Assembly (NCBI GenBank): GCA_009695195.1 | Contig: SIBJ01000001.1 | Span: forward strand, 53,581-117,580 | Direction: 5' to 3' | Source: Pedosphaera sp. | Lineage (GTDB): Bacteria; Verrucomicrobiota; Verrucomicrobiia; Limisphaerales; JADLHS01 | Length of the DNA stretch: 64,000 nt | Shown: piece by piece, positions 1-57,772 of the stretch | How positions within the stretch are numbered: the stretch's first letter is position 1 | Layout: the number at the start of each line of letters is the position of its first letter | Notes under the pieces: generated by a model | Told to the model about the DNA's origin: nothing | Seen by the model: the letters and a program-made list of their open reading frames with translations, nothing else | The model's database searches: none | Translations under genes and position numbers: made by a program

Positions 1-997
1 GGCCTGTGCCTGCTTGCAGTTTACCGGTCGGGCCGGCTTTCGCAATCATCGTTGCGTCGGTGTCGTTCAATTCAGATTGGTTCGCCATTTCCCGCCGGGC
101 TTTGATGAGGAAGCGATTCGCCGATTCGTAGTCGGGACGTTCGGGCAGTTTGGTTTCAGCCAGGGCGCGTTCGAAGTCGTGGTGCAGTTCCTTGCGCCAA
201 GCGTCCACTTCGGGCCACGGCATTTCGCCACGTTTAACGGCGAGCAATCGGTCGCGGTGCGCCTCGACACGCACGGGTACGCGGGCATCGCGCAACGTGG
301 CCGCGCCGGTGAGCAGCAGGCGCAGCAAGTGCATGGCGTGTTTCCAGCGCACCTCGCCGTGGTTGCGGATGTCCTGCTCGATCTTTTTGAACTGCGACAT
401 GGCGTAGCCGTTGAAGGTCTGGAAAATCATCTGGCTGAGAAAGGCGTCGCGCAAGGCCAGTAGTTCCTCGCCTAGAGGTGTGACCTTCTCGACGATCGGC
501 GAGTAGAGACATTCCAGAATGTTCGGATTCGCCTTGAGCGCCATGGTGAGGAACTTCTGCAATTCCCAGTAGCAGCTTTGCGTGGCGTTGTCCTCGAATT
601 GTTCCGGCGCGCCGAAGAGCGACCATTCCAGGTCGGCAGGCGCGAGGTAGATGCCGCGCCGGTCGGTGTCGGAGTCGTCGTGGTCCAGGCCGTACGCGCG
701 CGAGCCGACGACGCAGCGGTAGATGATGAATCGCTCAAGATCAAAGTTCGACTCTGACGTCCCGTCGCCGAGGCGGTCTTTGAAATGTTTCAGCACTTCG
801 AGTTGGTCACGGGCGAGCGATGCCTCGAAGCCGTCGGGGAAGCGCACGAGAAAATTCTTTTCCATTTCGCTCGCCGGCGTGCGCGTCACGACGCCAACGG
901 CGCCGCGCGGATGCACGAGCGAATTCTTCGTGCCTCGAACTTCGACCAGCGCAACAACCTGCGTCCCGGCAAAGATGTTATCTGGTTGATGCGACAT
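1..997 (-). CDS. Predicted nucleotidyltransferase-domain protein (PF10127-like), partial; the 3' end lies outside the window
   Basis: Absent from the ORF track because it has no stop inside the window. The reverse frame from the ATG (cat at 995-997) runs stop-free to base 1. The translation MSHQPDNIFAG...VVGSRAYGLDHDDSDTDRRGIYLAP...NPNILECLYSP carries a GSxxYG..SDxD nucleotidyltransferase-type motif. The + strand ORFs listed here look like shadow frames. Confidence 0.55.
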   Translation of the reverse strand, partial: MSHQPDNIFAGTQVVALVEVRGTKNSLVHPRGAVGVVTRTPASEMEKNFLVRFPDGFEASLARDQLEVLKHFKDRLGDGTSESNFDLERFIIYRCVVGSRAYGLDHDDSDTDRRGIYLAPADLEWSLFGAPEQFEDNATQSCYWELQKFLTMALKANPNILECLYSPIVEKVTPLGEELLALRDAFLSQMIFQTFNGYAMSQFKKIEQDIRNHGEVRWKHAMHLLRLLLTGAATLRDARVPVRVEAHRDRLLAVKRGEMPWPEVDAWRKELHHDFERALAETKLPERPDYESANRFLIKARREMANQSELNDTDATMIAKAGPTGKLQAGTG

Positions 998-1167: not shown

Positions 1168-1455
1168 TCACTCCACAATCTTCGGCACCATGAAGAGGCC
1201 ATTGGCTTGGGCGGGCGCGTTGCGGAGGGCGTCTTCGTGCGGGAGCGAGGGGCGGACTTCGTCGGGGCGGGTCACGTTCACGCGCGGCGCGGCGTGGGCG
1301 GTCGGCTCGACGTTGGTCACGTCCAGTTCCTTGAGCTTCTCGATGTGTTCGAGGATGTGGCCGAGTTGCTCACCGAATTTCTGTTCTTCTTCCGGCGTGA
1401 GCGCGAGCCGCGCCAGATGCGCGACGTATTTGACATCCACTTGAACCGCTGACAT
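1168..1455 (-). CDS. gatC: Asp/Glu-tRNA amidotransferase subunit C
   Basis: 95-aa ORF MSAVQVDVKYVAHLARLALTPEEEQKFGEQL...; length and N-terminal motif are typical of GatC. Confidence 0.9.
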   Translation of the reverse strand: MSAVQVDVKYVAHLARLALTPEEEQKFGEQLGHILEHIEKLKELDVTNVEPTAHAAPRVNVTRPDEVRPSLPHEDALRNAPAQANGLFMVPKIVE

Positions 1456-5592: not shown

Positions 5593-8514
5593 ATGGCTGT
5601 CGCCAAAAAGATGTTTATGAAAATTCGCTCCCTGCCCGCCCGACTGGCGTTCGTCATAGCTCTGGCAACCGCCGTGGCCTCCTCTTCCGCGGCGGTCCTC
5701 TCCGTCACTGGCAACGACACGCTCGTTGGCAACCGCCCGTTGAACCTGATCACCAACGGCAGCTTCGAGGCGGACGGCGGCGTGGCGACCAACTATTCTT
5801 ACTGGGCCACGGGCACTGGCTTCTTGCCAACCATGTCCCTGTCCGGCTGGAGTGCTTCCGGGCAGGTCGGCAGTTATGCATTTTGGGGCAGCGACGGATT
5901 TGGGGGTATCAACAACAGCGCCACGCTCCCGCATGGGACCAACGGAGTGTATTTCGGTGCCGGCATGATGGTATCGGTCAGTCCCTTCCCGACGGAAGCG
6001 AACAATGGCCTGGTCACGTTTGCCACCACCCCGGTGATTGTGCCCAAGCCGACCGACGGCCCGGTGACGTTGAAGCAAACCGTTTCGGGCCTCAACCCCA
6101 CCGCCACCTACTTGTTGGATTTTTGGACCAGCGGGGAAGATGTCGGGGGGACGGCCATGCCGGTGGATGGTTTCTTCGGCCTGGATATCACCGGCGAATC
6201 GCGGCTCTACTTCGCGGCGCCGAGTGGGAATGGGCCGATCGGAACGTCGCAACGTTACCAGGTTTATTTCACGCCGACCGCTTCGACGATCACGTTCCGG
6301 TGGCTCAACTGGGGGCATTACTTCAACAACACGAATGCCCTTTCCGATGAACTCGTGCTCGACGACGTCATCCTGAATCTGTTCACCAACGCGCCCACGC
6401 CGATTGATTGCAGTTGCGCAGCCAACCTCTCGTTCACCTGTCCCGCCGTGCTGCCCGACTTGTGCGCCACGCTGACGAATTGTTTCACCACGAACATGCT
6501 GCCCGGATCGTGCGTGCAGAACTTCCCGCCCGGGATGCCGCTCTCGGTCGGCGTGTATGTCGTCAACCTGCAGGTCCAGGATTTGCAGACCAACGCGTTC
6601 TCCTGCGCGGTGACGATCACGGTGAATCCACCGTCGAATGCCCCGCCGCTCACGGTGATTTGCCCGACGAACAAAACCGTCGAGTGCGGCAGCAACTGGA
6701 ATTTCGATCCGCCCGTCGTCACCTCGTCGTGCTGCGGTTTGATGATCACGCCAAGCGATGTCGTCGTGAGCAACAGCCCGTGCTCGCAAACCATCACGCG
6801 CACCTGGACGATCACCGACGGTTGCACGAACACGACGACTTGCAGTCAGGTCGTCACGCTCGTGGATACGACGCCACCCGGCACGCAATGCAACGGCCAG
6901 AATCTCGTCCCGAACGGCGACTTCGAGCGCTACACGAATTGTCCGTCGTCCATTTCGCAATTTGATTTTGCATCGCCGTGGTTCACCCCGACGGATGCGA
7001 CGACCGATTATTACAACAGTTGCGCCGGCCCCAATTCCTTCATGACCACGCCTACCGCCCTGGCCGGCTATCAGGTTCCATTGAGCGGTCAGGCTTACGC
7101 GGGCGCGGTGCTTTACACCAAGTTCGGCACGAACCCGACCAATTCCTACCGCGAGTATCTTGAAGTGCCGCTCGTCACAGCCCTGACGCCCGGGCAAAAA
7201 TACCTGGTGTCCTTTTACGTCAGTCGCGGGGAAGTTTACGGCCAGGCCATTGCCGACATCGGCGCGCGCTTCATGCCGCTCGCTTACACGATCTACGGTT
7301 CGATCAGCAACCCCTTTACCGGCGTGCTCGATTTCCCGACGCCACCGCATGTTGTTAATTCTCCGACCAACATCATCACCGATTCGACCAACTGGACGCT
7401 CATCCAAGGTCTCTACACCGCCGTCGGGTGGGAAAACCATCTCATCCTCGGCAACTTCAAGGACGATCCGAATACCACGGCCACGTTTGCGGGCGGCGCG
7501 TTCACCAATTACGCTTATTATTATTTCGACAACGTCTCCGTCGTCGCGATTTGCGATCCCGACCTGACGAACAAAGTCGTGCAGTGCGGCACGCCGTGGC
7601 AGTTTCCGCCGTTCCCGGTCATTGACAATTGCAGCGGCGGCAACATCACCGTCTCGAACTTCACGCTCACCACCAGCTATTGCCCCGACGTGACCACGCG
7701 CACTTGGTATCTCCAGGATCAATGCGGCAACTCCAACGTCATCACGCAGACGGTCACGGTCATTGACACGAATCCGCCGATCCTGATGTGCGGCGGCGGC
7801 GCGAACCTCGTCCCGAATCCGCAGTTCGAGGGCTATTCGTATTGCCCGTATTTCTTTTCGCAAGTCAATGCCGCGGGCCCGTGGTTCAATGCGACCATTG
7901 CCACGCCCGATTACATGAACACCTGCTCGACGCATCCCGGCGCGAGCGTGCCGAACAACGTCCCCGGTTCGCAAACGCCCTACAGCGGCAACGGCTACTT
8001 GGGCATCTTCACCTATTCGGTTTACGGAACGAATCCCGTGCCCGGCTACCGCGAATACATCGAAGCACCGCTGCTGTCCTCGCTCCAGGCGGGCACGACT
8101 TATCAGGTCTCCTTCCGCGTGAGCCTCGCGGATTACTCCGGCTGGGCCATGTCCGAGATCGGCGCGTTCTTCTCCGCCGGGCCGCTCACCGGCAACACGC
8201 AAGGGCCGCTCAACGTCACACCGCAGATCGAAAATCCTTCCGCCAACCTGCTGACTTCGACCAACGGCTGGATGCTCGTGCAGGGAACGTTCGTCGCGGT
8301 GGGCGGGGAGAACCACATCACCATCGGCAACTTCCGCAGCGACGCGAACACCACCGCCACGACCGCGTGGGGCACGAACAGTTCCTACTACTACATTGAT
8401 GACGTGGCGGTCACGCCGCTGTGTTCGTTCACGAACAAGACCGTTCTCTGCAACAGCCAATGGGATTTCGACACGCCGCTCGCGTACGACGAGTGCAGCG
8501 GGGATTATCTCTAG
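5593..8514 (+). CDS. Giant secreted Cys-rich modular surface protein, N-terminal part (ends at an in-frame TAG)
   Basis: Start placed at ATG 5593 (alternatives at 5611 and 5617). KIRSLPARLAFVIALATAVASSSA looks like a signal peptide. The track start at 5239 overlaps the divergent neighbouring gene. HYR/Ig-like modules (C..RTWTxxDxCxN...TxxDTxPP) alternate with jelly-roll-like modules of about 190 aa (NLVPNGDFE..YREY..GNF..YYYxDxV). Confidence 0.75.
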   Translation: MAVAKKMFMKIRSLPARLAFVIALATAVASSSAAVLSVTGNDTLVGNRPLNLITNGSFEADGGVATNYSYWATGTGFLPTMSLSGWSASGQVGSYAFWGSDGFGGINNSATLPHGTNGVYFGAGMMVSVSPFPTEANNGLVTFATTPVIVPKPTDGPVTLKQTVSGLNPTATYLLDFWTSGEDVGGTAMPVDGFFGLDITGESRLYFAAPSGNGPIGTSQRYQVYFTPTASTITFRWLNWGHYFNNTNALSDELVLDDVILNLFTNAPTPIDCSCAANLSFTCPAVLPDLCATLTNCFTTNMLPGSCVQNFPPGMPLSVGVYVVNLQVQDLQTNAFSCAVTITVNPPSNAPPLTVICPTNKTVECGSNWNFDPPVVTSSCCGLMITPSDVVVSNSPCSQTITRTWTITDGCTNTTTCSQVVTLVDTTPPGTQCNGQNLVPNGDFERYTNCPSSISQFDFASPWFTPTDATTDYYNSCAGPNSFMTTPTALAGYQVPLSGQAYAGAVLYTKFGTNPTNSYREYLEVPLVTALTPGQKYLVSFYVSRGEVYGQAIADIGARFMPLAYTIYGSISNPFTGVLDFPTPPHVVNSPTNIITDSTNWTLIQGLYTAVGWENHLILGNFKDDPNTTATFAGGAFTNYAYYYFDNVSVVAICDPDLTNKVVQCGTPWQFPPFPVIDNCSGGNITVSNFTLTTSYCPDVTTRTWYLQDQCGNSNVITQTVTVIDTNPPILMCGGGANLVPNPQFEGYSYCPYFFSQVNAAGPWFNATIATPDYMNTCSTHPGASVPNNVPGSQTPYSGNGYLGIFTYSVYGTNPVPGYREYIEAPLLSSLQAGTTYQVSFRVSLADYSGWAMSEIGAFFSAGPLTGNTQGPLNVTPQIENPSANLLTSTNGWMLVQGTFVAVGGENHITIGNFRSDANTTATTAWGTNSSYYYIDDVAVTPLCSFTNKTVLCNSQWDFDTPLAYDECSGDYL

Positions 8515-19650: not shown

Positions 19651-19847
19651 CCAGCAACGGCGGAGCGCGGGCGGTCCCCGCCCGCAGCACTTCCGCAAGC
19701 CGAGAGCGGTTGGAAATTTCCGAGGTCTTCCCGCAATCCACGCGCTGCGACCCCGCCATCGCGGGATCGCGCTCCGTCAATAATACGGTTGTTGCAATTC
19801 CACCGGCGCGGGCAATTTCTTCGTTGCATCCATGCCAGGCTGGCGGT

Positions 19848-20285
19848 TCACGTTTTCACCAGCGGATTGCGGGTCTTGAGTTTCGGGAACAGGGAGAAGT
19901 CGCGGTCAGCCGTCCAGAGTTCGCGCACGCCGTTATGCAGGCACAGCGCGGCGATGCGCGCATCGTGGATGCGCGGGCCGGAGAGTTTCGCGGCCAGCGC
20001 CAGCTCGCGCAGCTTTTCAAAATAACCCGGACTTTCGGAGAGCAGATGCAGTTGAGGCGAGGTCATCAAAGAGTCGAGAAAACCCAGCACATTGGCGAGC
20101 GGCGAGGCTGGCTTATAGACACGGCCGCTGGTCACCACACCGATAAATTCATGCACACAAGGCCACGGCAGCGCCCACGGACTGCCGCCTTCGATGACCG
20201 GGCGCAGTTGTTCCATCGTGTCCGAGTGAAATTCCGAATCTTCCCGATAGGCGTAAACCAGCAGGTTGGTGTCGAGCGCAATCAT
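19848..20285 (-). CDS. vapC: Type II toxin, PIN-domain VapC family
   Basis: MIALDTNLLVYAY...IHDARIAALCLHNGVRELWTADRDF; conserved acidic PIN residues; 145 aa; 4-nt overlap with the upstream antitoxin. Confidence 0.85.
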   Translation of the reverse strand: MIALDTNLLVYAYREDSEFHSDTMEQLRPVIEGGSPWALPWPCVHEFIGVVTSGRVYKPASPLANVLGFLDSLMTSPQLHLLSESPGYFEKLRELALAAKLSGPRIHDARIAALCLHNGVRELWTADRDFSLFPKLKTRNPLVKT

Positions 20286-20530
20286 GCGCCGTGGCCCCGA
20301 TAAATTTCGTCACGGATTTTTTCCCACGAGGCGTTCTTGAATTCATCGGTCAGTCCGCCGCCGCGAAAGGTCACGGGCTTCCATTTCCATTTTGCGGGTT
20401 TGGCCTGCTTTTCCTTGAGCACGATCCGCAAGCCCTGTTCGGTCAACGAACGGAAGGTCGTCTTCTCCTTGCGCGCGACGCGTTGGACGCGTTCAAAGAG
20501 ATCGTCGGCAATTTCGATGGTTGTCTTCAT
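20282..20530 (-). CDS. vapB: Type II antitoxin, VapB-like (DUF2191-type)
   Basis: MKTTIEIADDLFERVQRVARKEKTTFRSLTEQGLRIVL; start at ATG 20530. The longer track ORF (to 20677) runs into repeat sequence. Confidence 0.75.
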   Translation of the reverse strand: MKTTIEIADDLFERVQRVARKEKTTFRSLTEQGLRIVLKEKQAKPAKWKWKPVTFRGGGLTDEFKNASWEKIRDEIYRGHGA

Positions 20531-20596
20531 AATATGGCGACCCATATTCGCATGGCTGGCCACCCCTATCAAGCGCCATTTATCAGTAGCGGTCAG

Positions 20597-44018: not shown

Positions 44019-44029
44019 ACGGACTTTGA

Positions 44030-44105
44030 GACACGGATTTCACGGATTTCCACGGATTCAACAATTCTGGAAATCAATCCGTGAAAATTCGTGAAATCCG
44101 TGTCT
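44030..44105. repeat. Hairpin repeat, family F (ACACGGATTTCACGGATTTCCACGGATT arms)
   Basis: AGACACGGATTTCACGGATTTCCACGGATT ... AATCCGTGAAAATTCGTGAAATCCGTGTCT. It fills the nuoB-nuoC spacer. Confidence 0.65.
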
Positions 44106-44713: not shown

Positions 44714-44801
44714 AACGCAGAGACGCAGAGGCCGCAGAGAGACGCGAAGGAATTCTTTGTGTTTTCTCTGCGAGCCTCTGCGGCCTCTGCGTCTCTGCGT
44801 T
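44714..44801. repeat. Hairpin repeat, family G (AACGCAGAGACGCAGAGGCCGCAGAGA arms)
   Basis: AACGCAGAGACGCAGAGGCCGCAGAGAGACGCG ... CTCTGCGAGCCTCTGCGGCCTCTGCGTCTCTGCGTT. A second copy lies at 54057-54153. It fills the nuoC-nuoD spacer. Confidence 0.7.
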
Positions 44802-44822: not shown

Positions 44823-46118
44823 ATGCCCGAAGTTCAAGAAATCGAAATCCGCGATTCCGCCGCGCAGTCCGCAGCGGCAGCTCGAGCTTTGCCCCGTCCG
44901 AGCGACGAAGATTTGCAGGACATGCAGGGCGAGAAGATGGTCCTCAACATGGGGCCGTCGCACCCGTCCACGCATGGCGTGTTGCGCATCATTCTTGAGC
45001 TGGACGGCGAGATCATCACCAAGGCGATTCCAGACATCGGCTATCTGCATCGCGGCGACGAGAAGATTGCCGAGAACATGACCTACACCCAGTTCATCCC
45101 TTACACGGATCGGCTGGATTATCTCGCGCCGATGGCGAACAACGTCGCCTACGCGCTCGCGGTCGAAAAACTGCTCGGCATCCACGACAAACTCCCGCCG
45201 CGTTGCCAATATCTCCGCGTGATTTGCGCGGAACTGGCGCGTATCTCGTCGCACTTGCTCGGCGTCGGCTGTTTCGCGATGGATGTGGGCGCGATGACGG
45301 TTTTCCTGCTCACGTTCACCGAGCGCGAAAAGATTTACAACCTCTGCGAATCCCTCACTGGAGCGCGATTCACGACGAGTTACACGCGCATCGGTGGCGT
45401 TTCGCGCGACACGCCGCCCGGTTGGTGCGACGCGGTGCGCAAGTTTCTCAACGAAGTCGTCGTCAACATCGCCGAGGTCGAGACGCTGCTCACGCGCAAC
45501 AAAATCTGGGTGGACCGCACGCGCGACGTGGGCGTGATCTCGAAGGAAGAGGCGATTGATTTCGGTCTGAGTGGTCCGAATTTGCGCGGCAGCGGCGTGG
45601 ATTACGATCTCCGCAAAGCGCAGCCGTATCTTTGTTACAAAGATTTGCAATTCGACGTGCCGCTCGGTTCGGTTGGCGATTGCTACGACCGCTACCTCGT
45701 GCGCATGGAGGAAATGCGCCAGAGCGTGCGCCTCGTCCATCAGTGCCTCGATAAACTGCCCGGCGGATTCGAGAACAAATCGAAAGAGCCGGTGAACGTG
45801 GCCGATGGCAAAATCGTGTTGCCGCCGAAGAACAAGGTCATGTCGAGCATGGAGGAATTGATTCATCAATTCATGCTCGTGACGCAGGGCATGAACTGTC
45901 CGCCCGGCGAAGTTTATTTTGGCCACGAAAATCCGAAGGGCGAACTCGGCTTTTACATCAACAGTCGCGGCGGTGGCACGCCGTATCGGATGAAGATCCG
46001 CAGCCCCAGCTTCGTGAACCTGAGCATCCTGTCGCACCTGTTGCCCGGCCACATGATGAGCGACACCGTGGCAATCTTGGGATCGTTCGACTTTGTGATG
46101 GGAGAATGTGACCGATGA
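44823..46118 (+). CDS. nuoD: NADH-quinone oxidoreductase subunit D
   Basis: LNMGPSHPSTHGVLR...GYLHRG.EK...; start placed at ATG 44823. The track ORF start at 44424 lies inside nuoC. Confidence 0.92.
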   Translation: MPEVQEIEIRDSAAQSAAAARALPRPSDEDLQDMQGEKMVLNMGPSHPSTHGVLRIILELDGEIITKAIPDIGYLHRGDEKIAENMTYTQFIPYTDRLDYLAPMANNVAYALAVEKLLGIHDKLPPRCQYLRVICAELARISSHLLGVGCFAMDVGAMTVFLLTFTEREKIYNLCESLTGARFTTSYTRIGGVSRDTPPGWCDAVRKFLNEVVVNIAEVETLLTRNKIWVDRTRDVGVISKEEAIDFGLSGPNLRGSGVDYDLRKAQPYLCYKDLQFDVPLGSVGDCYDRYLVRMEEMRQSVRLVHQCLDKLPGGFENKSKEPVNVADGKIVLPPKNKVMSSMEELIHQFMLVTQGMNCPPGEVYFGHENPKGELGFYINSRGGGTPYRMKIRSPSFVNLSILSHLLPGHMMSDTVAILGSFDFVMGECDR

Positions 46119-46600
46119 GCTTTTCCGTTCCCGCAAATCTTGAAGCCGAGATTGACGAGCTGATCACGCATTATCCCGTGAAGCGCAGCGCGTCGCTCAT
46201 GCTTCTGCACGCGTTGCAGGAACATTTCGGCCACATCTCGCCGGAAGCTACGCAATGGGTCGCAAAGAAACTTGGTCTTCAACCCATCAACGTTCACGAA
46301 CTCGTGACGTTCTATCCGATGTTCCGTCAATCTGCGCCGGGCAAACATCAGATCAAAGTCTGTCGCACGCTCAGTTGCGCGCTCGGTGGTTCGCACAAGT
46401 TGCACGAACATTTTTGCACGAAGCTCGGACTCGATCCGCATGCGCATGGTTTGCAAACGACAAAGGATGGAAAGTTCTCGGTCGAGTTCGTCGAGTGCCT
46501 CGCCGGTTGCGGCATGGCGCCAGTGATGATGTGCAACGAGGATTTCTTTGAAGGCGTATCTGAGAAAAAGGCCGATGAAATTCTGGGAGGCTGCAAGTGA
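46115..46600 (+). CDS. nuoE: NADH-quinone oxidoreductase subunit E
   Basis: 2Fe-2S motif VCRTLSCALGG...VECLAGCGMAPVMM; 4-nt overlap with nuoD. Confidence 0.9.
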   Translation: MSFSVPANLEAEIDELITHYPVKRSASLMLLHALQEHFGHISPEATQWVAKKLGLQPINVHELVTFYPMFRQSAPGKHQIKVCRTLSCALGGSHKLHEHFCTKLGLDPHAHGLQTTKDGKFSVEFVECLAGCGMAPVMMCNEDFFEGVSEKKADEILGGCK

Positions 46601-46647
46601 AGATGCTGAATTCGACATTCTTCATTCTGCCTTCTTCATTGGGAGAG

Positions 46648-46721
46648 TGGTTGCCCGACATGGATTTGAACCATGACAAACAGATTCAGAGTCTGCTGTG
46701 CTACCGTTACACCATCGGGCA
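46648..46721 (-). tRNA. tRNA-Gln (anticodon CTG), 74 nt with encoded CCA
   Basis: The reverse complement folds by hand into a cloverleaf: acceptor TGCCCGA/TCGGGCA (7 bp), D-arm GTGT-AACGGTA-GCAC, anticodon stem GCAGA/TCTGT with loop CTCTGAA, T-arm CATGG-TTCAAAT-CCATG, discriminator A, then CCA. Confidence 0.85.
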
Positions 46722-46810
46722 AACCGACGTGTCCGCTAAACTAGAGAATTTCGCAGGCCAGTCAAGCCGACAGACCGGTTCAACCGCGAACGACTTGAAT
46801 GGTTTTGACG

Positions 46811-47018
46811 CTCGCCCTCACCCCGGCCCTCTCCCCCGAGAAGAGGGAGAAGCTGCGCGCGGCTTACGAAAATTTGGCCGTCACAATTGCAGTCGCCATC
46901 TCTCTGCCGTTCGCTCCAAGGCGCTCACAACAAACTGCGATGTCCGTATCGCCACCAACCGGCGAACGATTCTCCCTCTCCTGGGGGAGAGGGCCGGGGT
47001 GAGGGTGGTCGTTCCCAC
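46811..47018. repeat. Inverted pair of family M elements (CTCACCCCGGCCCTCTCCCC / GGGGAGAGGGCCGGGGTGAG) flanking about 115 bp
   Basis: The left copy (46811-46852) and right copy (46968-47018) are mutual reverse complements, giving a MITE-like architecture in the nuoE-nuoF spacer next to the tRNA. Confidence 0.65.
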
Positions 47019-47056
47019 AAACATTTCACGCATCACGCATCACGCACCACGTTAAC

Positions 47057-48499
47057 ATGCCGCAAGAGTTCAAACTCATCCTCAAGCACCTCGATAACCC
47101 GGGTTACACGCCGGACATCGAATGCTATTTGCGACACGGCGGCTACGACGCGCTCAAAAAAGCACTCGCCATCCAGCCCAAGGATTTGCCCGACGGCAAG
47201 AAAGCATCGCCACAGGAACAGATTCGCGACGACGTGAAGCTTTCCGGCCTGCGCGGTCGCGGCGGCGCGGGTTTTTCGTGCGGACTCAAGTGGAGTTTCG
47301 TGGATCGCCGCAGCGGCAAACCGATTTATCTCATCTGCAACGCCGACGAATCCGAGCCGGGCACGTTCAAAGATCGCCAGATCATCCACAAAGACCCGCA
47401 TCAACTCATCGAGGGCATGATTGTCTCGTGCTTCGCGAACGACGTGAAGCTCGCCTACATCTACATCCGTGGCGAAATGCCCAAGGGCGCGAAGCTGCTG
47501 AACGCGGCGTTGAAGGAAGCTCGCGCGAAAAATTTCCTCGGCAAAAACATTTTGGGCAGCGGTTACGATTTGGAGATTCACGTTCATCGCGGCGCGGGTG
47601 CTTACATCTGCGGCGAGGAAACCGGCCTCATCGAATCGCTCGAAGGCAAGCGACCGTATCCGCGCATCAAGCCGCCGTATTTTCCCGCGGTGCTCGGGCT
47701 TTACATGTGCCCGACCATCGTCAACAACGTCGAGACGCTCTGCAACGTGAAGCACATCGTCACGATGGGCGGCCCGGAATTCGCGAAGCTCGGCACGCCG
47801 AACAACACCGGCACACGCATCGTGAGTTTGAGCGGCCAGGTGAAACGCCCCGGCTACTACGAGATCGAAGTCGGTAAAGCCACCATCGGCCAGCTTATCA
47901 ACGATCCCGCGTTCGGCGGCGGCTTGCTTGATGGAAGAAAACTTAAAGCGGTCATCCCCGGCGGTTCATCCTCAAAAGTTTTGAAGGCAGGCGAGAAATT
48001 CAAACTCAAGCGCAAGATCGAAGGCAAAGATGTCGAAGTGGAAACCGACATGCTTGATCTGCCGTATGATTTCGATTCGCTCCAGCAAGCGGGCACAATG
48101 AGCGGTTCGAGCGCGATCATCGTGATTGATGACAGCGTGGACATCGTCGGCGCGCTGGCGAATCTCTCCGAGTTTTACGCCCACGAAAGCTGCGGCCAAT
48201 GCACGCCGTGCCGTGAAGGCTCGCTCTGGATGAGCAAGACGCTGCATCGCCTCACGCACGGTGAAGGCCGCAAACAGGACGCGGATTATCTCGTGAAGAT
48301 CGCCGACAACATTCCCGGCGGTAAGACGATCTGCGCGTTCGGCGAAGCCTGCTCGTGGCCGGTGCAAAGTTTCGTCGCGAAGTTCAAAGATGAATTCGTT
48401 GCCAAAGGCGCAGCCGATGAAGAACGTCGCGCGAAAGAAAAAGTTCAACCAAAAATTGCCACGCCAGCGGAGCGAAAAGAATTAACGACCGCACATTAG
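47057..48499 (+). CDS. nuoF: NADH-quinone oxidoreductase subunit F
   Basis: GLRGRGGAGFS.G.KW (FMN/NADH site) and ESCGQCTPCREG (N3 cluster). Confidence 0.92.
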   Translation: MPQEFKLILKHLDNPGYTPDIECYLRHGGYDALKKALAIQPKDLPDGKKASPQEQIRDDVKLSGLRGRGGAGFSCGLKWSFVDRRSGKPIYLICNADESEPGTFKDRQIIHKDPHQLIEGMIVSCFANDVKLAYIYIRGEMPKGAKLLNAALKEARAKNFLGKNILGSGYDLEIHVHRGAGAYICGEETGLIESLEGKRPYPRIKPPYFPAVLGLYMCPTIVNNVETLCNVKHIVTMGGPEFAKLGTPNNTGTRIVSLSGQVKRPGYYEIEVGKATIGQLINDPAFGGGLLDGRKLKAVIPGGSSSKVLKAGEKFKLKRKIEGKDVEVETDMLDLPYDFDSLQQAGTMSGSSAIIVIDDSVDIVGALANLSEFYAHESCGQCTPCREGSLWMSKTLHRLTHGEGRKQDADYLVKIADNIPGGKTICAFGEACSWPVQSFVAKFKDEFVAKGAADEERRAKEKVQPKIATPAERKELTTAH

Positions 48500-48504
48500 A
48501 AATC

Positions 48505-48810
48505 ATGCCCAAGCTTTACGAATACTTCGGATTGATCGTGTTCTTCTACACCAATGAACATGAGCCGATTCACGTTCATGGCGAGTTTCAGAACGGCCAC
48601 GCCAAGGCGGAATTCTTTTTGAAAGAAGGCAACATCGTGCGGATTGTGTTCTCGAACGTGAACGGCAAACGCCCATTGCCGGGATACAAAATGAAGGATT
48701 TCAGAACCTTGGTGAACGCCAAAGCCGACGATATCGTCCGGCGTTGGATTGAATACTTTGTGTTCAAGAAACACAACAAGCCGGAAATCATTACCCGAAA
48801 AATCAAATGA
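48505..48810 (+). CDS. DUF4160 domain protein
   Basis: MPKLYEYFGLIVFFYTNEHEPIHVHGEFQNGHAKAEF matches my recollection of the DUF4160 N-terminal signature (xHxPxHxH). It starts 5 nt after the nuoF stop. The region looks AT-richer by eye. Confidence 0.8.
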   Translation: MPKLYEYFGLIVFFYTNEHEPIHVHGEFQNGHAKAEFFLKEGNIVRIVFSNVNGKRPLPGYKMKDFRTLVNAKADDIVRRWIEYFVFKKHNKPEIITRKIK

Positions 48811-49199
48811 AAGCGCTGGCGACAAAATATTTGGAAATCGTCCAAGCCGGATACGTTTCCGGCTACAAGATTCGATTGACGTTCAATGATGGGCTGGTTC
48901 GCGTCATGGACTTCGAGCCGTTTTTGCGCAAAGCCCTGAACCCCGACATCACAAAATACCGGCAATTTCGGAACTTCAAAAAATTCCATCTGCACTACGG
49001 TGATTTGATGTGGGGAGATTTCGATATGATTTTTCCGATAACGGATTTGCATCGCGGGAACATTCTCAAAGGGGAGGAAGCCGCTCTGTCTCACTTTGTG
49101 TTGAACGACACTGCCGCTCCGGCCAAACCAATTTCGGACAGGAAAACCAAAATTGTTTCTTACCAAAATGTGAAACGGAAAAAAGTTTTGCATGGCTGA
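48807..49199 (+). CDS. DUF2442 domain protein
   Basis: VSGYKIRLTFNDGLVRVMDFEPFL is the DUF2442-type beta motif. It has an ATGA overlap with the DUF4160 gene, which is the usual pairing, and its stop overlaps the nuoG start by 8 nt. Confidence 0.7.
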   Translation: MKALATKYLEIVQAGYVSGYKIRLTFNDGLVRVMDFEPFLRKALNPDITKYRQFRNFKKFHLHYGDLMWGDFDMIFPITDLHRGNILKGEEAALSHFVLNDTAAPAKPISDRKTKIVSYQNVKRKKVLHG

Positions 49200-50928
49200 C
49201 GCAACAACAACCGAAGTCAAGCCCGCGCCGCCTGCGATCGAAAAGATCAAGGTCAAGGTGGACGGGCGCGAAGTCGAAGTGCCGAAGCTCACGCCGGATT
49301 GGCAGGGCAAACTCGCGCCCACCACGATGCTGCAGGCGTGCGACATCGCGAAGAAGGATGTCCCGCATTATTGCTATCACCCGAAGCTGCCCGTCGCCGG
49401 TAATTGTCGCATGTGTCTCGTCGAGTTTGGCACGCCCGCACTCGGGCCGGATCGCAAGCCGGTGATGAATCCCGACGGCACGCCAAAGATTGCGAAGTCG
49501 CCGCGTCCGGCCATCGGTTGCGCCACGCCGATTTCGCCGGGAATGGAAATTTACACGAGCACTCCGGGCGTGAAGCAGATGCGCGAGGGCGTGCTCGAAT
49601 CGCTGCTCATCAATCATCCGCTCGATTGCCCGATCTGCGACCAAGCCGGCGAATGCAAGCTCCAGGAATATTCCGTGGACTACGGCCAGAGCGCGAGCCG
49701 TTTCGTTGAGGCAAAGGTTCACAAGCCCAAGGCCGTTGATCTCGGGCCGCGCATCATGCTCGACGCCGAGCGTTGCATTCTGTGCACGCGCTGCATCCGC
49801 TTCACAAAGGATGTCGCAGGCGACGACGCGCTGGGCATCGTGAATCGCGGCAGTTACAACACGATTGCGACGTTCCCCGGCCTGCCGTTCGACAACAACT
49901 ACACGCTCAACACCGTGGACATCTGTCCCGTCGGCGCGCTGACGTCGAAGGATTTTCGTTTCCAGATGCGTGTGTGGTTTCTCAAGGAAACTAAAAGCGT
50001 CTGCACGAGTTGCGCGACGGGTTGCAACGTCCTCATCAGCTCGCGCGAGGAAAAGATTTACCGCTACACGCCACGCGACAACGACGCCGTCAACGGTCCG
50101 TGGATGTGCGATGCGGGACGACTCAATTATAAGTGGATTCAACGCGAAGATCGGTTGAAGGATGTTTTAGTGGGGCAGGCTTCCAGCCTGCCTGTTTCAA
50201 AGTCCGGGCAGGCTGGAAGCTTGCCCCACTACAAATCTTCGTGGACTGCGGCACTCTCGGAAATTGCGGAGAAGCTCAAGCAAGCTCCGGCGGGTTCGGT
50301 GGCGATTGTTGTCTCGGCCTGCCAAACGAACGAAGAGCTTTGGCTGATCAGCAAACTCAAGGCGAAACTCGGTGCGATCAGTGATTCCGTCGAGCGCACA
50401 GGTGATGCCGACAAGTTGCTCGTCAGCGCTGACAAGAATCCCAACACAAACGGCGCGCGGCTCACCGGAATTTGCTTCAGCGAAATGGGAATCAACCTGC
50501 CCAAGATCGCGGACGGCATCGCGAGCGGAAAGATTAAGAGCCTCATCGTTTTCGGCGAAGACGTGACGAAGCACGGCATCAGCGCGGAATTGCTCGGCAA
50601 GCTGGACACGCTCATCGTCAGCGACATTTTGCCGAACGCCACAACGGCAGCCGCGCATTACGTTTTGCCTGGTTGCGCACACGCCGAGAAGCGCGGTTCG
50701 TTCACGAACACCAAAGGTCGTGTGCAAAAGTTCATGCAAGCCGTCCAGCCGCCCGGCGACGCCCGCGCCGAATGGGATTTTCTGCACGACTTGGTTTACA
50801 ACGTCACCGGCAAGAACGGTTTCCTGACCATCGAAGGTCTGTTCAACGAGATGGCGAAGGATGTTCCGGCGTTCAACGGTTTGACGTGGGCCAGCCTCAG
50901 TGACACGGGCGTGACGGTGAAGATTTGA
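49192..50928 (+). CDS. nuoG: NADH-quinone oxidoreductase subunit G
   Basis: N-terminal 2Fe-2S and 4Fe-4S motifs (CYHPKLPVAGNCRMCLVE, HPLDCPICDQAGECKLQ, CILCTRCIRF), then a molybdopterin-like domain. Confidence 0.9.
   Translation: MADATTTEVKPAPPAIEKIKVKVDGREVEVPKLTPDWQGKLAPTTMLQACDIAKKDVPHYCYHPKLPVAGNCRMCLVEFGTPALGPDRKPVMNPDGTPKIAKSPRPAIGCATPISPGMEIYTSTPGVKQMREGVLESLLINHPLDCPICDQAGECKLQEYSVDYGQSASRFVEAKVHKPKAVDLGPRIMLDAERCILCTRCIRFTKDVAGDDALGIVNRGSYNTIATFPGLPFDNNYTLNTVDICPVGALTSKDFRFQMRVWFLKETKSVCTSCATGCNVLISSREEKIYRYTPRDNDAVNGPWMCDAGRLNYKWIQREDRLKDVLVGQASSLPVSKSGQAGSLPHYKSSWTAALSEIAEKLKQAPAGSVAIVVSACQTNEELWLISKLKAKLGAISDSVERTGDADKLLVSADKNPNTNGARLTGICFSEMGINLPKIADGIASGKIKSLIVFGEDVTKHGISAELLGKLDTLIVSDILPNATTAAAHYVLPGCAHAEKRGSFTNTKGRVQKFMQAVQPPGDARAEWDFLHDLVYNVTGKNGFLTIEGLFNEMAKDVPAFNGLTWASLSDTGVTVKI
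50170..50229. repeat. Hairpin repeat, family N, inserted in frame within nuoG
   Basis: GTGGGGCAGGCTTCCAGCCTGCC-N14-GGCAGGCTGGAAGCTTGCCCCAC has 23-nt arms with one mismatch. It is 60 nt long, which is 20 codons (VGQASSLPVSKSGQAGSLPH). Confidence 0.7.
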
Positions 50929-52564: not shown

Positions 52565-53536
52565 ATGCGACGAATACTCCTCATAACAGCAGTCGTTCAA
52601 TGCCTGAGCGCTCTAAGCGCACAAGCCGTGACATTGCCTTTTGAGCAGAACTACGTTGAGCCATTCTACTCGTCAAAGCTTCAAGTGGTTTGGGCGGCCA
52701 CTAATCAATTGCCAGCGACGGCAAAGATTTACAAAGTTGTTCCGGCCAATTTTTCGTCGTCAGCCATTTCAAATCTTACGGCGCTGGGCGGTTCGGCAAA
52801 TCTCAAGCGTGGCGCAATGAACCTTTACAAGCCGACCGATGGGCGACTGCCTTTGGAGAAAGTCCCCGACAAGGCCAGAGCCTACGAACTTGGGATTGGC
52901 TTGCTCGCAAAGTTGGAGATTCCGGTTGGTGAATTGATGTCAGAGGGTGGAAAGCCGGTGGCTGGTTATTCTCCAGGCACGCGCGGTCACATGGACAAGG
53001 CCACTCGCAAGATGATAACCGAGCCTTGCACGATGGGAGTTCAGTTTCGGCGTGCGCTTGATGGCATCGAATGTTTCGGCCAGCAAGTCCGCATTCAATT
53101 TGAAAGTCAGGAGGCAATGACGCAGTTGGACGTCAGGTGGTGTGGCGTGCAAGCCGACAAGACCTGCGTGGTCGCCACTCCTGATCAAATCATTTCTTGG
53201 ATCAAGGAAGGGCGAGCACGGGCGCATCCGATTGAAACGACGGGCCAACGCTGGATCAGGGTCGCTGACATCAAGAAGGTCACAATTCGGCAAGTCCGGC
53301 TCTGCTACGATGCCGAGCCAGATACGGAGAACCCGGAGAAGTTCCCGAACTATTTGTATCCTTATTTGGGAATCGAAGCCGAAATCGAGTTCTCGTCCAC
53401 CGACCGCGAAACGTTGGGGATTTCCTGCCCCATCATCAAGGAAGCGTTAAGCAGCGCTAACCGTAAGACCAGCGAGTTCAACATTCTGCCAAAGACATTT
53501 TTCGAGAATGAAGCCCGGCGGGAGGGAAGCCAGTAA
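52565..53536 (+). CDS. Secreted hypothetical protein (323 aa) embedded between nuoI and nuoJ
   Basis: ATG 52565 lies 2 nt after the nuoI stop. Signal peptide MRRILLITAVVQCLSALSAQA. No family recognised. It ends 3 nt before nuoJ. The track ORF (52148-) extends spuriously upstream, out of frame, over nuoI. Confidence 0.65.
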   Translation: MRRILLITAVVQCLSALSAQAVTLPFEQNYVEPFYSSKLQVVWAATNQLPATAKIYKVVPANFSSSAISNLTALGGSANLKRGAMNLYKPTDGRLPLEKVPDKARAYELGIGLLAKLEIPVGELMSEGGKPVAGYSPGTRGHMDKATRKMITEPCTMGVQFRRALDGIECFGQQVRIQFESQEAMTQLDVRWCGVQADKTCVVATPDQIISWIKEGRARAHPIETTGQRWIRVADIKKVTIRQVRLCYDAEPDTENPEKFPNYLYPYLGIEAEIEFSSTDRETLGISCPIIKEALSSANRKTSEFNILPKTFFENEARREGSQ

Positions 53537-54056: not shown

Positions 54057-54153
54057 AAACGCAGAGCCGCAGAGCCGCAGAGAACGCGGAGAAACGCAGA
54101 GGAAATCATTTTCTTTTCTCCGCGAACCTCCGCGGCCTCTGCGTCTCTGCGTT
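54057..54153. repeat. Hairpin repeat, family G
   Basis: AAACGCAGAGCCGCAGAGCCGCAGAGAACGCGGAG ... CTCCGCGAACCTCCGCGGCCTCTGCGTCTCTGCGTTT. It fills the nuoJ-nuoK spacer. Confidence 0.7.
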
Positions 54154-54755: not shown

Positions 54756-56657
54756 ATGAAACTCGAAGCGCTACCTTGGTTGGTCTTGTTCCTGCCGCTG
54801 CTCGCGGCGGGCATAATCACGCTGTTCACCCTGCGCAACAAAACGGTCAGCGCCACGTTGTCCATTGGCGCGATTGTGACGGGCTTCGTCCTCACGCTGG
54901 CGGTCATCAAGTTCGGCGGCTGGGAAGCGCGCGAACTTTCCGTCAACTGGCTCTCCATCGGCGGCCTGAACGTGGACTTCGGCCTCAAACTCGACGCGCT
55001 CAGCCTGATGATGCTCCTCATCGTCACCGGCGTCGGCAGCGCGATTCATATTTATTCCTACGGCTACATGCGCGAAGACCCGGGCTTCTCACGCTTCTTC
55101 GCGTGCATGAGTCTGTTCACGTTCTCGATGCTTGGCATCGTGCTCTCGAACAATTTCCTCCAGATGTTCATTTTCTGGGAACTGGTCGGTGTGTCGAGCT
55201 ACCTGCTCATCGGTTTCTGGTTTGAAAAACCCAGCGCGGCGGATGCGGCGAAAAAGGCTTTCATCACGAACCGGCTCGGCGACTTCGGGTTCATGCTGGG
55301 CATCCTGACGATTTTCGCCATCGTCGGCTCGCTGAACTTCGGGACGATTCAAGAACTACTCAAAGTGAACCCAGCATTGTTCGGAGCATCAGCCACGCTC
55401 GCCGGTCTGTTGATTTTCTGCGGCGCGATGGGCAAGTCCGCCCAATTTCCGCTGCATGTCTGGCTGCCCGACGCGATGGAAGGCCCAACCCCCGTCAGCG
55501 CGCTCATCCACGCCGCGACCATGGTGGCCGCTGGTGTTTACATGCTGTGCCGCGCGTTCTTCATCTTCTCGCCGGATGCGCTGACCGCCATCGCCTGGAT
55601 CGGCGGTTTCACCGCCTTGCTCGCCGCGCTCATTGCCGTCCAGCAAAACGACATCAAGCGCATCCTCGCCTACTCGACGCTGTCGCAACTCGGCTACATG
55701 GTCATGGCTGTGGGCTTGACTGGGCCGACGCCCGCGATGTTTCATCTCACCACGCACGCGTTCTTCAAGGCGTTGCTGTTCCTCGGCGCAGGCTCGGTCA
55801 TTCACGCCATGCACCATGAGCAGGACATCTGGAAGATGGGCGCGCTCCGCAAGAAAATGCCCGTGACGTTTTGGACGTTCCTTGTCGGCACGCTCGCGCT
55901 CTGCGGCGTCCCGCCGTTCAGCGGCTTCTACTCGAAGGACGCGATCCTCGCGCAGGCGTTGCACGCGCACAACTACCCGCTCTTCGCCGTCGCCGTGTTC
56001 GTCGCGGTGCTGACGACGTTCTACATGTTCCGCTTGTTCTTCGTCGCGCTTGTCGGCGAACCCAGAACGAAGGAAGCCGAACACGCGCACGAATCGCCCG
56101 GCGTCATGATCTGGCCGCTGAGAATTCTCGCCTTGCTGAGCGTGATTGCTGGAGTGATGGGCATTAACAAGATTTTTGACCTGTACTCAAGTAGAGTGCT
56201 TCCTCCCTTTACGTATGAAATCCCCGTCGGCGAATTTTCAGGAGCAGTCAAATATGTAGGAAGGCTGCTCGAACCATTCCAACATGCGCCTGTCGCTGCG
56301 TTCGGTGGATTGATTGCTGTTGTGATTGGTTTCCTCGCCGCCAAGGTGCTTTACGGCAAAGCCAAGACCGATCCGCTGCCCGCCAAACTCGGCGCGTTGT
56401 CCCGCGCGATGGCGAACCGCTTTTACTTCGACGAAATTTACGAAGCCACGGTCATCCGCATCCACGACACCATCGCCGCGATCTCCGACTGGATTGATCG
56501 CTGGATCGTGGAAGGCTTTTGCATCGGCCTGGTGCGCGGCGGAACGGATTTGACGGGCCGCGCGCTGCGCCTGGTCCAAACGGGTAACCTCCAGACCTAC
56601 GCCTTCCTGTTCGTGCTCGGCGTGGCCGTGGTGCTGTGGTTCGTGCTGGGGAAATGA
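54756..56657 (+). CDS. nuoL: NADH-quinone oxidoreductase subunit L
   Basis: Start at ATG 54756 (MKLEALPWLVLFLPLL). Antiporter-like motifs FWELVGVSSYLLIGFW and KSAQFPLHVWLPDAMEGPTPVSALIHAATMV. Confidence 0.92.
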   Translation: MKLEALPWLVLFLPLLAAGIITLFTLRNKTVSATLSIGAIVTGFVLTLAVIKFGGWEARELSVNWLSIGGLNVDFGLKLDALSLMMLLIVTGVGSAIHIYSYGYMREDPGFSRFFACMSLFTFSMLGIVLSNNFLQMFIFWELVGVSSYLLIGFWFEKPSAADAAKKAFITNRLGDFGFMLGILTIFAIVGSLNFGTIQELLKVNPALFGASATLAGLLIFCGAMGKSAQFPLHVWLPDAMEGPTPVSALIHAATMVAAGVYMLCRAFFIFSPDALTAIAWIGGFTALLAALIAVQQNDIKRILAYSTLSQLGYMVMAVGLTGPTPAMFHLTTHAFFKALLFLGAGSVIHAMHHEQDIWKMGALRKKMPVTFWTFLVGTLALCGVPPFSGFYSKDAILAQALHAHNYPLFAVAVFVAVLTTFYMFRLFFVALVGEPRTKEAEHAHESPGVMIWPLRILALLSVIAGVMGINKIFDLYSSRVLPPFTYEIPVGEFSGAVKYVGRLLEPFQHAPVAAFGGLIAVVIGFLAAKVLYGKAKTDPLPAKLGALSRAMANRFYFDEIYEATVIRIHDTIAAISDWIDRWIVEGFCIGLVRGGTDLTGRALRLVQTGNLQTYAFLFVLGVAVVLWFVLGK

Positions 56658-57772
56658 AATCGCGATCTGCCAACAAAAAAACTTTGAGGAAGGCCCGCCC
56701 GGCCTCGCGGAAGATTGTCGCGACATCGTCGCGACAATTGGCGAAGGCTTCTCCCAAAGCCTTGCTGGTAGATGTGCGAGAACTGATTCTCGCCGCGCGC
56801 GCGGGCGTGGCGCGCACGGTCAATGCCGGCCTGACTCTGCTCTATTGGGAGGTTGGGAATCGCATTCGCGTGGATGTCCTCAAGGAGCGGCGAGCTGGTT
56901 ACGGCGAGGAAATTGTGCAGACGTTGTCGGCACAATTGGAAATCGAGTTCGGGCGCGGGTTCAGCAAGCGCAACCTTTTCAGCATGGTCGCTTTTGCCGA
57001 GGCATTTCCTGACCGGAAGATTGTGCAGACACTGTCTGCACAATTGGGCTGGAGTCATTTCAAGGAAATCATTCCGCAGCAGGATGAATTGAAGCGCGAC
57101 TTCTACGCCGAGATGTGTCGCATGGAGCGATGGAATGTGCGGACGCTGCGGCGGAAAATCGGTGGAATGCTTTTCGAGCGCACCGCCATCTCAAAGAAGC
57201 CCGACCAACTCATCCGCCAGGAACTCAAAGCTCTCCGCGAGGAAGACCAACTCACCCCCGACCTCGTCTTCCGTGATCCTTATGTGCTGGATTTTCTCAA
57301 GCTCAAGGACAGCTACAGCGAAGGCGACCTCGAAGCCGCGATTCTGCGCGAGATCGAGTCGTTCATTCTGGAACTCGGTGAGGGCTTCTGCTTCGTCGCG
57401 CGGCAGAAGCGGATGCAGATTGACGACCGCGATTACCATCTTGACCTGTTGTTCTTCCATCGCAAGCTGCGCCGGCTCGTGGCGATTGATTTGAAGCTGG
57501 ATGATTTCGAGGCCGCCGACAAAGGGCAGATGGAACTCTACCTGAACTGGCTCAAGAAACATGAGCAAAGCCCGGACGAAGCGCCGCCGCTCGGCATCAT
57601 CCTGTGCGCGGGCAAACGGCAGGAACACGTCGAACTGTTGCAAATGGAACGCGACGGCATTCACGTTGCCAGCTACGTGACGAAGTTGATTCCGAAGAAG
57701 CAACTCGAGCGAAAGCTTCACCAGGCTGTGCGCTTGGCAAGGGCCCGGCTGGAGGAAACCAAACTTAGATGA
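56654..57772 (+). CDS. DUF1016/YhcG-family PD-(D/E)xK nuclease-domain protein
   Basis: The N-terminal DUF1016-like helical domain (NAGLTLLYWEVGNRI...YGEEIVQTLSAQL, a duplicated IVQTLSAQL motif, WSHFKEI) and the C-terminal nuclease core (GFCFVARQKRMQIDDRDYHLDLLFFHRKLRRLVAIDLK) match YhcG as I recall it. ATGA overlaps occur at both ends, with nuoL and nuoM. Confidence 0.8.
   Translation: MKSRSANKKTLRKARPASRKIVATSSRQLAKASPKALLVDVRELILAARAGVARTVNAGLTLLYWEVGNRIRVDVLKERRAGYGEEIVQTLSAQLEIEFGRGFSKRNLFSMVAFAEAFPDRKIVQTLSAQLGWSHFKEIIPQQDELKRDFYAEMCRMERWNVRTLRRKIGGMLFERTAISKKPDQLIRQELKALREEDQLTPDLVFRDPYVLDFLKLKDSYSEGDLEAAILREIESFILELGEGFCFVARQKRMQIDDRDYHLDLLFFHRKLRRLVAIDLKLDDFEAADKGQMELYLNWLKKHEQSPDEAPPLGIILCAGKRQEHVELLQMERDGIHVASYVTKLIPKKQLERKLHQAVRLARARLEETKLR

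Follow-up and report, generated by a model that had tools for sequence, protein, structure and literature searches.

Why do two small genes stand between nuoF and nuoG, inside an operon for respiratory complex I? The question is raised by a 64-kb stretch of DNA from Pedosphaera sp. (contig SIBJ01000001.1), here called the window, a term that covers the whole stretch analysed. A preliminary description of this DNA had proposed a mobile or toxin-antitoxin-like pair of DUF4160 and DUF2442 genes, and our analysis supports the proposal: the gene family is validated, nuoF and nuoG are contiguous in the nearest and in most of 77 relatives, and the base composition is atypical. Herein, we propose that the pair is probably a toxin-antitoxin system of type II, from the DhiT/DhiA family, with the DUF4160 toxin first and the DUF2442 antitoxin second, in the form of a promoterless, translationally coupled addiction cassette that resides in the nuo operon and moves within it. 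Such a cassette would be an accessory selfish addiction element and not a component of complex I. The locus is laid out as follows (aa, amino acids; nt, nucleotides; ORF, open reading frame).

47057..48499, plus strand: nuoF, the upstream host gene, 480 aa, TAG stop; matches Pfam Complex1_51K and NADH_4Fe-4S and NCBIfam NuoF
48500..48504, plus strand: spacer AAATC, 5 nt from the nuoF stop to the dhiT ATG, without a Shine-Dalgarno-like motif
48505..48810, plus strand: ORF1, putative dhiT-like toxin gene (DUF4160), 101 aa, assigned by Pfam match and homologs
48556..48579, plus strand: ORF1 codons E18-H19-E-P21-I-H23-V24-H25, the invariant histidine cluster (alignment of 46 sequences)
48807..49199, plus strand: ORF2, putative dhiA-like antitoxin gene (DUF2442), 130 aa, motif GYKIRLTFNDG...DFEPF
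48807..49064, plus strand: DhiA core, the first 86 codons of ORF2, with a Pfam match and a weak NCBIfam DhiA match
49065..49199, plus strand: DhiA C-terminal tail, 44 codons and the TGA stop, peculiar to the window's subclade
49192..50928, plus strand: nuoG, the downstream host gene, 578 aa; matches Pfam and NCBIfam NuoG

The ORF table and the sequence confirmed the layout first described, namely the 101-aa frame with HEPIHVH, the 130-aa frame with its own motif, the ATGA overlap, and the spacings of 5 and 8 nt. The ATGA shared by ORF1 and ORF2 lies at 48807..48810, with the dhiA start overlapping the dhiT stop, and the nuoG ATG stands 8 nt inside ORF2 (overlap 49192..49199). The N-terminus encoded by nuoG is collinear with that of insert-free relatives. 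The same nuoF-ORF1-ORF2-nuoG arrangement, 100% identical, was also present in independent assemblies (the Logan contig L081 and two ENA contigs), so it is not an assembly artefact or a chimera. A 210-aa minus-strand ORF running across the cassette was discarded as an antisense shadow, an artefact of the greedy ORF caller.

Profile searches bore out the two domain names as well. ORF1 matched DUF4160 (PF13711) at 34.1 bits (cut-off 23, E 3.2e-8), and ORF2 matched DUF2442 (PF10387) at 27.8 bits (cut-off 23.9, E 2.9e-6). The earlier statement that such pairs have no known function is out of date, since such pairs make up DhiTA, a validated family of type II toxin-antitoxin systems (PMC8198452, PMC12724237). 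In Dickeya dadantii 3937, the DUF4160 protein inhibits the growth of both Dickeya and E. coli, and co-expression of the DUF2442 protein prevents this inhibition; the toxin gene comes first and the antitoxin gene overlaps it, and at the dhiTA promoter the antitoxin acts as a repressor and the toxin-antitoxin complex as a stronger one (PMC8198452). On a Thermus plasmid, an 87-aa DUF4160 protein and a 92-aa DUF2442 protein are encoded just downstream of rep and stabilise plasmids; the second ORF neutralises the first, and a plasmid lacking the second could not be introduced (PMC12724237). The toxin-first, overlapping layout of the window pair was common to all relatives examined.

The homologs of ORF1 numbered 957 at E below 1e-5, and the top 120 were almost all exactly 101 aa long. 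Among 46 DhiT sequences (57-100% identity), E18, H19, P21, H23, V24, and H25 were invariant, which makes this E/H-P-H-V-H cluster a candidate for an active site or a metal-binding site. From the 46 homologs, AlphaFold2 gave a confident model of ORF1 (predicted local distance difference test score, pLDDT, 94; predicted template modelling score 0.87), with a sheet of five strands, two helices, and a short strand at the end. A Foldseek search of this model against the PDB gave nothing significant (best E 0.12, template modelling score below 0.35), and phmmer found no PDB match for either protein. The mechanism of DhiT can thus not be borrowed from a known fold. In a study of Menshen NsnC proteins, DUF4160 is an effector domain, and no structural homolog was found for it (PMC12065111). 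The Pfam search of the pair revealed no nuclease domain, with the LAGLIDADG, GIY-YIG, HNH, and PD-(D/E)XK classes considered. Neither protein was matched in PADLOC-DB 2.0 at an E of 1 or better, and PHROGs gave weak matches only, to families of unknown function. A plasmid origin was rejected, because tblastn of DhiT against 72,556 plasmids returned no match at an E of 1e-3 or better.

That the pair was inserted can be read from the nuo operons of the relatives. A NuoF scan of species-representative genomes gave 80 loci with NuoF 79-94% identical to that of the window, nearly all from Verrucomicrobiota (subdivision 3, Limisphaerales or Pedosphaera); a few bear other names and are probably mis-binned. 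The nuoF-nuoG gap was below 100 nt in 49 of 77 readable loci, with a median of 11 nt. The nearest relatives, L001 (NuoF 94% identical) and L002 (90%), have an empty site with 1-4 nt between the nuoF stop and the nuoG ATG; as nuoF and nuoG are separated by just 1-8 nt among the closest relatives, the DhiTA pair is an insertion. In the NuoF plus NuoG tree, the window was sister to empty-site genomes, and each other cargo-bearing tip likewise had empty-site sisters. The pair, intact or as a remnant, occurred in only about 7 of the 80 species-level relatives. Vertical conservation in all nuo operons of the phylum with native composition, which would speak against mobility, was thus not what we found: presence is patchy and composition atypical.

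As for that composition, the pair had been judged AT-rich by eye, and the cassette proved to be the lowest-GC stretch of the 64 kb. Its GC content was 0.462, whereas the whole window has 0.600; no more than 0.06% of all 695-nt segments were as GC-poor, the minimum being 0.456 at 48495. At third codon positions (GC3), the cassette had 0.65 and the nuo genes 0.76. This gap is smaller than the overall one, and the AT-richness is therefore partly a matter of amino-acid composition. Across the copies embedded in nuo operons, cassette GC3 was below flank GC3 in every case (mean difference 0.137), and the two were correlated (r = 0.49, p = 0.006). The deficit and the correlation together fit a long residence in the clade with some movement.

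The contexts of the homologs were examined by exact-protein look-ups, a metagenome scan, and tblastn with the Nuo proteins of the window. All DhiT homologs of at least about 58% identity with readable flanks were inside nuo operons: approximately 37 at nuoF-nuoG, 6-7 at nuoC-nuoD (L046, L091, L092, L094, L095, L124), and one arrangement at nuoD-nuoE (L084/L085). Homologs of 57% identity or less (L126-L169) had no nuo flank, with the exception of L118. In the DhiT tree, all 33 nuo-embedded copies fell in one clade. Its deep branches were all nuoF-nuoG, and the derived subclade of the window (at least 84% identity) mixed the nuoF-nuoG, nuoC-nuoD, and nuoD-nuoE positions. From these branch positions, nuoF-nuoG was probably the ancestral home of the cassette, and the relatives of the window's copy probably moved recently between junctions. 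The copies closest to the cassette of the window are that of L090, which is 91% identical and adjoins nuoG, and that of L046, which is 89% identical and stands at nuoC-nuoD, in a host whose NuoF is only 84% identical. By these contexts, the lineage appears nearly confined to the nuo operons of one soil group of Verrucomicrobia (Limisphaerales/Pedosphaera-type). The preliminary description had called the niche unusual; the location inside nuo stands and is no isolated case, as a lineage nearly confined to nuo and other cargo at the same junctions were found.

The antitoxin varies along this lineage. The basic form is 86 aa long and ends in 'GEI*', and its TGA often shares a base with the nuoG ATG. 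In the window's subclade, DhiA is extended by a tail of 40-55 aa, and the tail of the window protein, 'ILKGEE..HFVL..VSYxxxKR', is common to L046, L082, L090-L095, and L101. In the nuoC-nuoD copies, the tail continues into a duplicated NuoC C-terminus, 'REPRVRTSEN*'.

Embedded and free copies also differ in how they begin. In 32 of 34 nuo-embedded copies, no more than 10 nt lay between the upstream stop and the dhiT ATG. Of the non-nuo homologs, 9 of 40 were as tight, and most have a spacer of 30-1000 nt before dhiT. Similar short contexts of the type 'TGA-ATC/ATTGCC-ATG' recurred at embedded dhiT starts. Shine-Dalgarno motifs are also missing from the nuo genes, which lie end to end, so the cassette matches the stop-start style of the operon. 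A scan of 46000..50000 for sigma-70-like promoters, the one type covered, found none, and no plus-strand terminator was found in or around the cassette. The claim that the pair is co-expressed with the nuo genes fits this absence of promoter- or terminator-like sites between them.

Possible traces of the insertion mechanism were seen in two relatives. The cassette of L046 is bracketed by two copies of the nuoC 3' end, a direct repeat of 28 nt (639..666 and 1364..1391, 86% identity, p ~2e-4), and an in-frame fusion joins the nuoC duplicate to the DhiA C-terminus. L075 has a second copy of the nuoF 3' end, 70 nt long (7300..7369 and 7977..8046, 74% identity), between a DUF2283-containing pair and DhiTA. 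These duplications are a possible scar of insertion; they fit the single-crossover integration of a circle, because a circle carrying that 3' end would leave them behind. The same test of the DhiA tail against the nuoF 3' end gave p = 0.09 for L021 and was not significant for L082, L090, and L101. Within 48380..49330 of the window, inverted repeats were weak only (73-83% complementary), the DhiA stop overlaps nuoG and leaves no non-coding 3' segment for an attC-like repeat, and no integrase was present among the called genes covering roughly 2-44 kb of the window. The contig L093 was not relied on as proof that a cassette with a nuoC scrap had moved to nuoF-nuoG, since it is only 1.4 kb long and may be an assembly chimera, with 98 repeat-like nt downstream that resemble the repeat in the nuoC-nuoD gap of the window (44714..44801).

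Selection on the cassette was estimated by pairwise Nei-Gojobori ratios of nonsynonymous to synonymous substitution (dN/dS). The ratio was 0.09 for DhiT (0.06 within the window's subclade), 0.11 for the DhiA core (0.12 in that subclade), and 0.29 for the tail. On these ratios, both genes are judged to be under strong purifying selection and the cassette to be kept functional. Both genes were intact in 32 embedded loci. In six others (L021, L024, L028, L066, L110, L113), the toxin was lost, truncated, or interrupted with the antitoxin intact, and the reverse was found in none. Where the pair decayed, the toxin was thus the first to go, as in a toxin-antitoxin pair.

According to the reading proposed here, the cassette would share the nuo mRNA, and stop-start coupling would carry translation from nuoF through dhiT and dhiA to nuoG, so that the downstream complex I genes would not be disrupted. 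DhiT would be an enzyme using its invariant E/H-x-P-x-H-V-H cluster, and DhiA would neutralise it by direct binding. If the cassette were lost or nuo transcription stopped, freed toxin would arrest growth, and the cassette would be retained in consequence. Recombination at the upstream gene's 3' end, perhaps through a circle and a single crossover, would give rise to new copies. The nuo location itself may stabilise the cassette.

Several observations weigh against this reading. The NCBIfam DhiA equivalog model (NF048016) scored ORF2 at only 26.4 bits against a cut-off of 200, over positions 2-62 of 160, and no NCBIfam model matched ORF1; for this reason we regard the window pair as a distant member of the DhiTA family and not as an ortholog of the Dickeya system. 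The canonical autoregulated toxin-antitoxin promoter is absent, with only 5 nt between the nuoF stop and the dhiT ATG. The window flanks carry no recombination tract, nuoF and nuoG both being closest to the cassette-free L001 and L002 up to the junction, and flanking repeats or target-site duplications are at chance level (DhiA tail against nuoF 3' end, p = 0.07). Both trees, of NuoF plus NuoG and of DhiT, are neighbour-joining trees without support values. The restriction to nuo may partly reflect sampling, as the metagenome scan returns near relatives only, and one contig in the embedded DhiT clade (L106, 798..1309) has no nuo flank. This contig is only 1.3 kb long and has an AT-rich, non-coding-looking stretch before the dhiT ATG; it may be an escapee with a regained promoter, or a misassembly.

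DhiTA is not alone in these operons. Gaps of at least 300 nt between neighbouring nuo genes were distributed among the related loci as follows.

nuoB-nuoC: 0 of 58 loci
nuoC-nuoD: 10 of 60 loci
nuoD-nuoE: 9 of 69 loci
nuoE-nuoF: 29 of 73 loci
nuoF-nuoG: 16 of 77 loci
nuoG-nuoH: 0 of 69 loci
nuoH-nuoI: 8 of 67 loci
nuoI-nuoJ: 7 of 66 loci

The cargo ORFs were co-oriented with the operon in 146 of 180 cases, and several minus-strand clusters in the gaps were antisense shadows of plus-strand cassettes. Most of the junction cargo consisted of toxin-antitoxin, restriction-modification, and nuclease genes. At nuoF-nuoG of L020, L039, L058, and L071, a ParE-like toxin of 98-99 aa is paired with an Unstab_antitox protein of 77-80 aa, and the toxins of L020 and L058 are very similar when compared by eye; this may be a second nuo-resident toxin-antitoxin lineage. 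Further cargo included HigB, PIN, HEPN with nucleotidyltransferase, AbiEii/DUF6036 with an 80-aa partner, methylase and endonuclease pairs, Uma2, PDDEXK_3, NYN, an IS200-like Y1 transposase (at nuoH-nuoI in three relatives), glyoxalase, and repeat elements. The nuoF-nuoG cargo of L053 was predicted by eye, with no Pfam run, to be a methyltransferase. The nuo operon of L084 (1..8306, also L085) was crowded, with an AF2212-like gene, a nucleotidyltransferase, and HEPN at nuoC-nuoD, DhiTA, glyoxalase, and DUF6036/AbiEii at nuoD-nuoE, and PIN and three small ORFs at nuoE-nuoF.

The window itself holds the following further features.

56636..57772, plus strand: YhcG/DUF1016 PD-(D/E)XK nuclease gene, 378 aa, at nuoL-nuoM (Pfam 160.8 and 153.7 bits)
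52565..53536, plus strand: ORF of about 323 aa with a signal-peptide-like N-terminus, at nuoI-nuoJ, no Pfam match
46648..46721, minus strand: tRNA-Gln(CTG), antisense, at nuoE-nuoF (ARAGORN; Rfam tRNA 66 bits)
44714..44801 (nuoC-nuoD), 44029..44105 (nuoB-nuoC), 54058..54153 (nuoJ-nuoK): long palindromic hairpin repeats, with weak matches to microRNA-precursor models
about 19839..20536, minus strand: free-standing PIN-domain pair (VapBC-like), 87 aa and 145 aa

The YhcG gene overlaps nuoL and nuoM by a few nt and is a second foreign flush insert in the operon. The ORF of about 323 aa, for a predicted secreted protein, begins 2 nt past the nuoI stop and has a homolog at nuoI-nuoJ of L028. In contrast to the flush DhiTA cassette, the PIN pair is separated from both neighbours by intergenic spacers and lies in a local dip of GC (0.558). 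It was the only such pair among the non-nuo genes of the window (roughly 40 kb), which contained no embedded cargo, although this is a weak check on whether nuo is special among operons. In 31 related loci, the shadow peptide of the tRNA-Gln, 'WLPDMDLNHDKQIQSLLCYRYTIGQ', turned up again between nuoE and nuoF, a gap that never fell below 100 nt, so the antisense tRNA looks conserved in the nuo operon of the clade. The hairpin repeats yield shadow peptides of the 'RRDAEAAE...SAPLRLCV' type, and similar elements fill the nuo gaps of many relatives.

Considering this cargo, a broader idea can be put forward, which we regard as possible but on balance doubtful. The nuo operons of Limisphaerales/Pedosphaera-type Verrucomicrobia might host a distinct class of mobile elements, promoterless 'operon-junction cassettes', of which DhiTA would be a gene-drive-like niche specialist. 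The class would comprise DhiTA, ParE, HigB, PIN, HEPN/MNT, AbiEii pairs, restriction-modification pairs, and PD-(D/E)XK nucleases. Its members would insert precisely at stop/start junctions by recombination with the upstream 3' end, be expressed via translational coupling, and owe their persistence to addiction or to a role as sentinels for transcription shut-off.

The last possibility leads to the strongest rival of the addiction cassette, anti-phage abortive infection, in which nuo transcription would serve as a sentinel: after shut-off by a phage, the labile antitoxin would decay, DhiT would kill or arrest the cell, and the nuo junctions would be a defence hotspot. The defence-like cargo at the same junctions (restriction-modification, AbiEii, HEPN/MNT, PIN, ParE, HigB, and PD-(D/E)XK including the YhcG of the window) is in line with this, as is the role of DUF4160 as an effector domain in the Menshen defence system (PMC12065111). 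However, PADLOC had no match for either protein, PHROG matches were weak, and pure addiction explains the pattern equally well. We consider abortive infection unlikely.

A homing or gene-drive element would account for the fidelity of the lineage to nuo junctions. In this reading, DhiT, or the two genes jointly, would cause itself to be copied into unoccupied nuo junctions, much as free-standing homing endonuclease genes do that lie between conserved phage genes. One clade is restricted to them across hosts with NuoF 74-88% identical to that of the window, some copies have a duplicate of the upstream gene's 3' end at their flank, several of the other genes at these junctions encode nucleases, and the invariant histidine cluster could be catalytic. 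Nevertheless, the confident DhiT model (pLDDT 94) matches no nuclease or other fold, three junctions with unrelated sequences are used, the flanks show no co-conversion tract, and the validated biology of the family is that of a toxin-antitoxin system (PMC8198452, PMC12724237), which together make homing very unlikely.

That the pair is a domesticated complex I factor, held in the operon for co-expression and acting in assembly or regulation of the N-module, could be argued from the strong purifying selection on both genes, their tight, coupled position between N-module genes, and the precedent of unrelated reading frames in the nuo cluster of Rhodobacter capsulatus. The scattered occurrence of the pair (in only about 7 of the 80 species-level relatives, and in none of the nearest) contradicts this reading, as do the variable position of the same cassette at different junctions and the loss of the toxin first, the antitoxin being intact in 6 such genomes; moreover, unrelated cargo is interchangeable at the same site. 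We therefore hold it to be highly improbable. An inert hitch-hiker, the decaying remnant of a past insertion, might be suspected from the broken toxins and lone antitoxins of some relatives and from a DhiA tail that resembles fused junk in some copies, but it is scarcely tenable with both window ORFs intact, all invariant residues present, and the subclade's dN/dS values at 0.06 (DhiT) and 0.12 (DhiA core).

The addiction cassette thus remains the reading we prefer. Its gene family was already known, and its nuo niche appears to be unreported: the literature searched described neither toxin-antitoxin genes within a nuo operon nor an insert at nuoF-nuoG. In the usual description, toxin-antitoxin systems are two-gene operons with autoregulation, dispersed over mobile elements and genomic islands. 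What would be new here, judged from gene arrangements, is a toxin-antitoxin lineage that has traded autoregulation for life inside a conserved respiratory operon. If so, selfish or defence genes can gain expression and persistence by borrowing the transcription and coupling of an essential operon, and conserved operons can be hotspots of accessory genes. The toxin-to-antitoxin ratio would be tied to expression of the respiratory chain, a possible trigger of growth arrest or abortive infection. Dozens of natural paired alleles are available for working out the action of DUF4160 toxins, and in annotation it should not be taken for granted that small ORFs within nuo operons of these phyla encode accessory subunits of complex I.

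Compared with known systems, the window pair shares with DhiTA of Dickeya dadantii the two Pfam domains, the toxin gene in first place, overlapping frames, and two small proteins. Unlike it, the match is at the superfamily level only, and the Dickeya operon has its own autoregulated promoter, for which the window cassette has no room. The 'Persistence Enhancing Module' of a Thermus thermophilus plasmid (PMC12724237) has a similar domain-only antitoxin of about 90 aa (the window core has 86 aa) and likewise lies directly downstream of another gene, rep in Thermus. That module is plasmid-borne and stabilises its replicon, whereas the window pair is chromosomal and lies between two genes of an essential pathway.

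Defence and toxin-antitoxin hotspots flanked by core genes, and promoterless cassettes of the integron type, exist as general classes. The nuo cargo resembles them in being variable at a fixed position between conserved genes, co-oriented, and presumably served by an outside promoter. It differs in that the hotspot is inside an operon, at stop/start junctions, with the cargo flush to both neighbours; at nuoF-nuoG, neither an integrase, nor an attC-like repeat, nor a tRNA-type att site is apparent. The closest parallel in gene order is offered by the unidentified reading frames (URFs) of the Rhodobacter capsulatus nuo cluster, unrelated co-oriented ORFs between complex I genes, equivalents of which are present in the nqo cluster of Paracoccus. 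One of the Rhodobacter frames, urf7, encodes an S-adenosylmethionine-dependent methyltransferase, which may be compared with the predicted methyltransferase at nuoF-nuoG of L053. However, the Rhodobacter URFs have been described as fixed features of their operon, whereas the nuo cargo found here is a presence/absence polymorphism made up mainly of toxin-antitoxin and nuclease genes.

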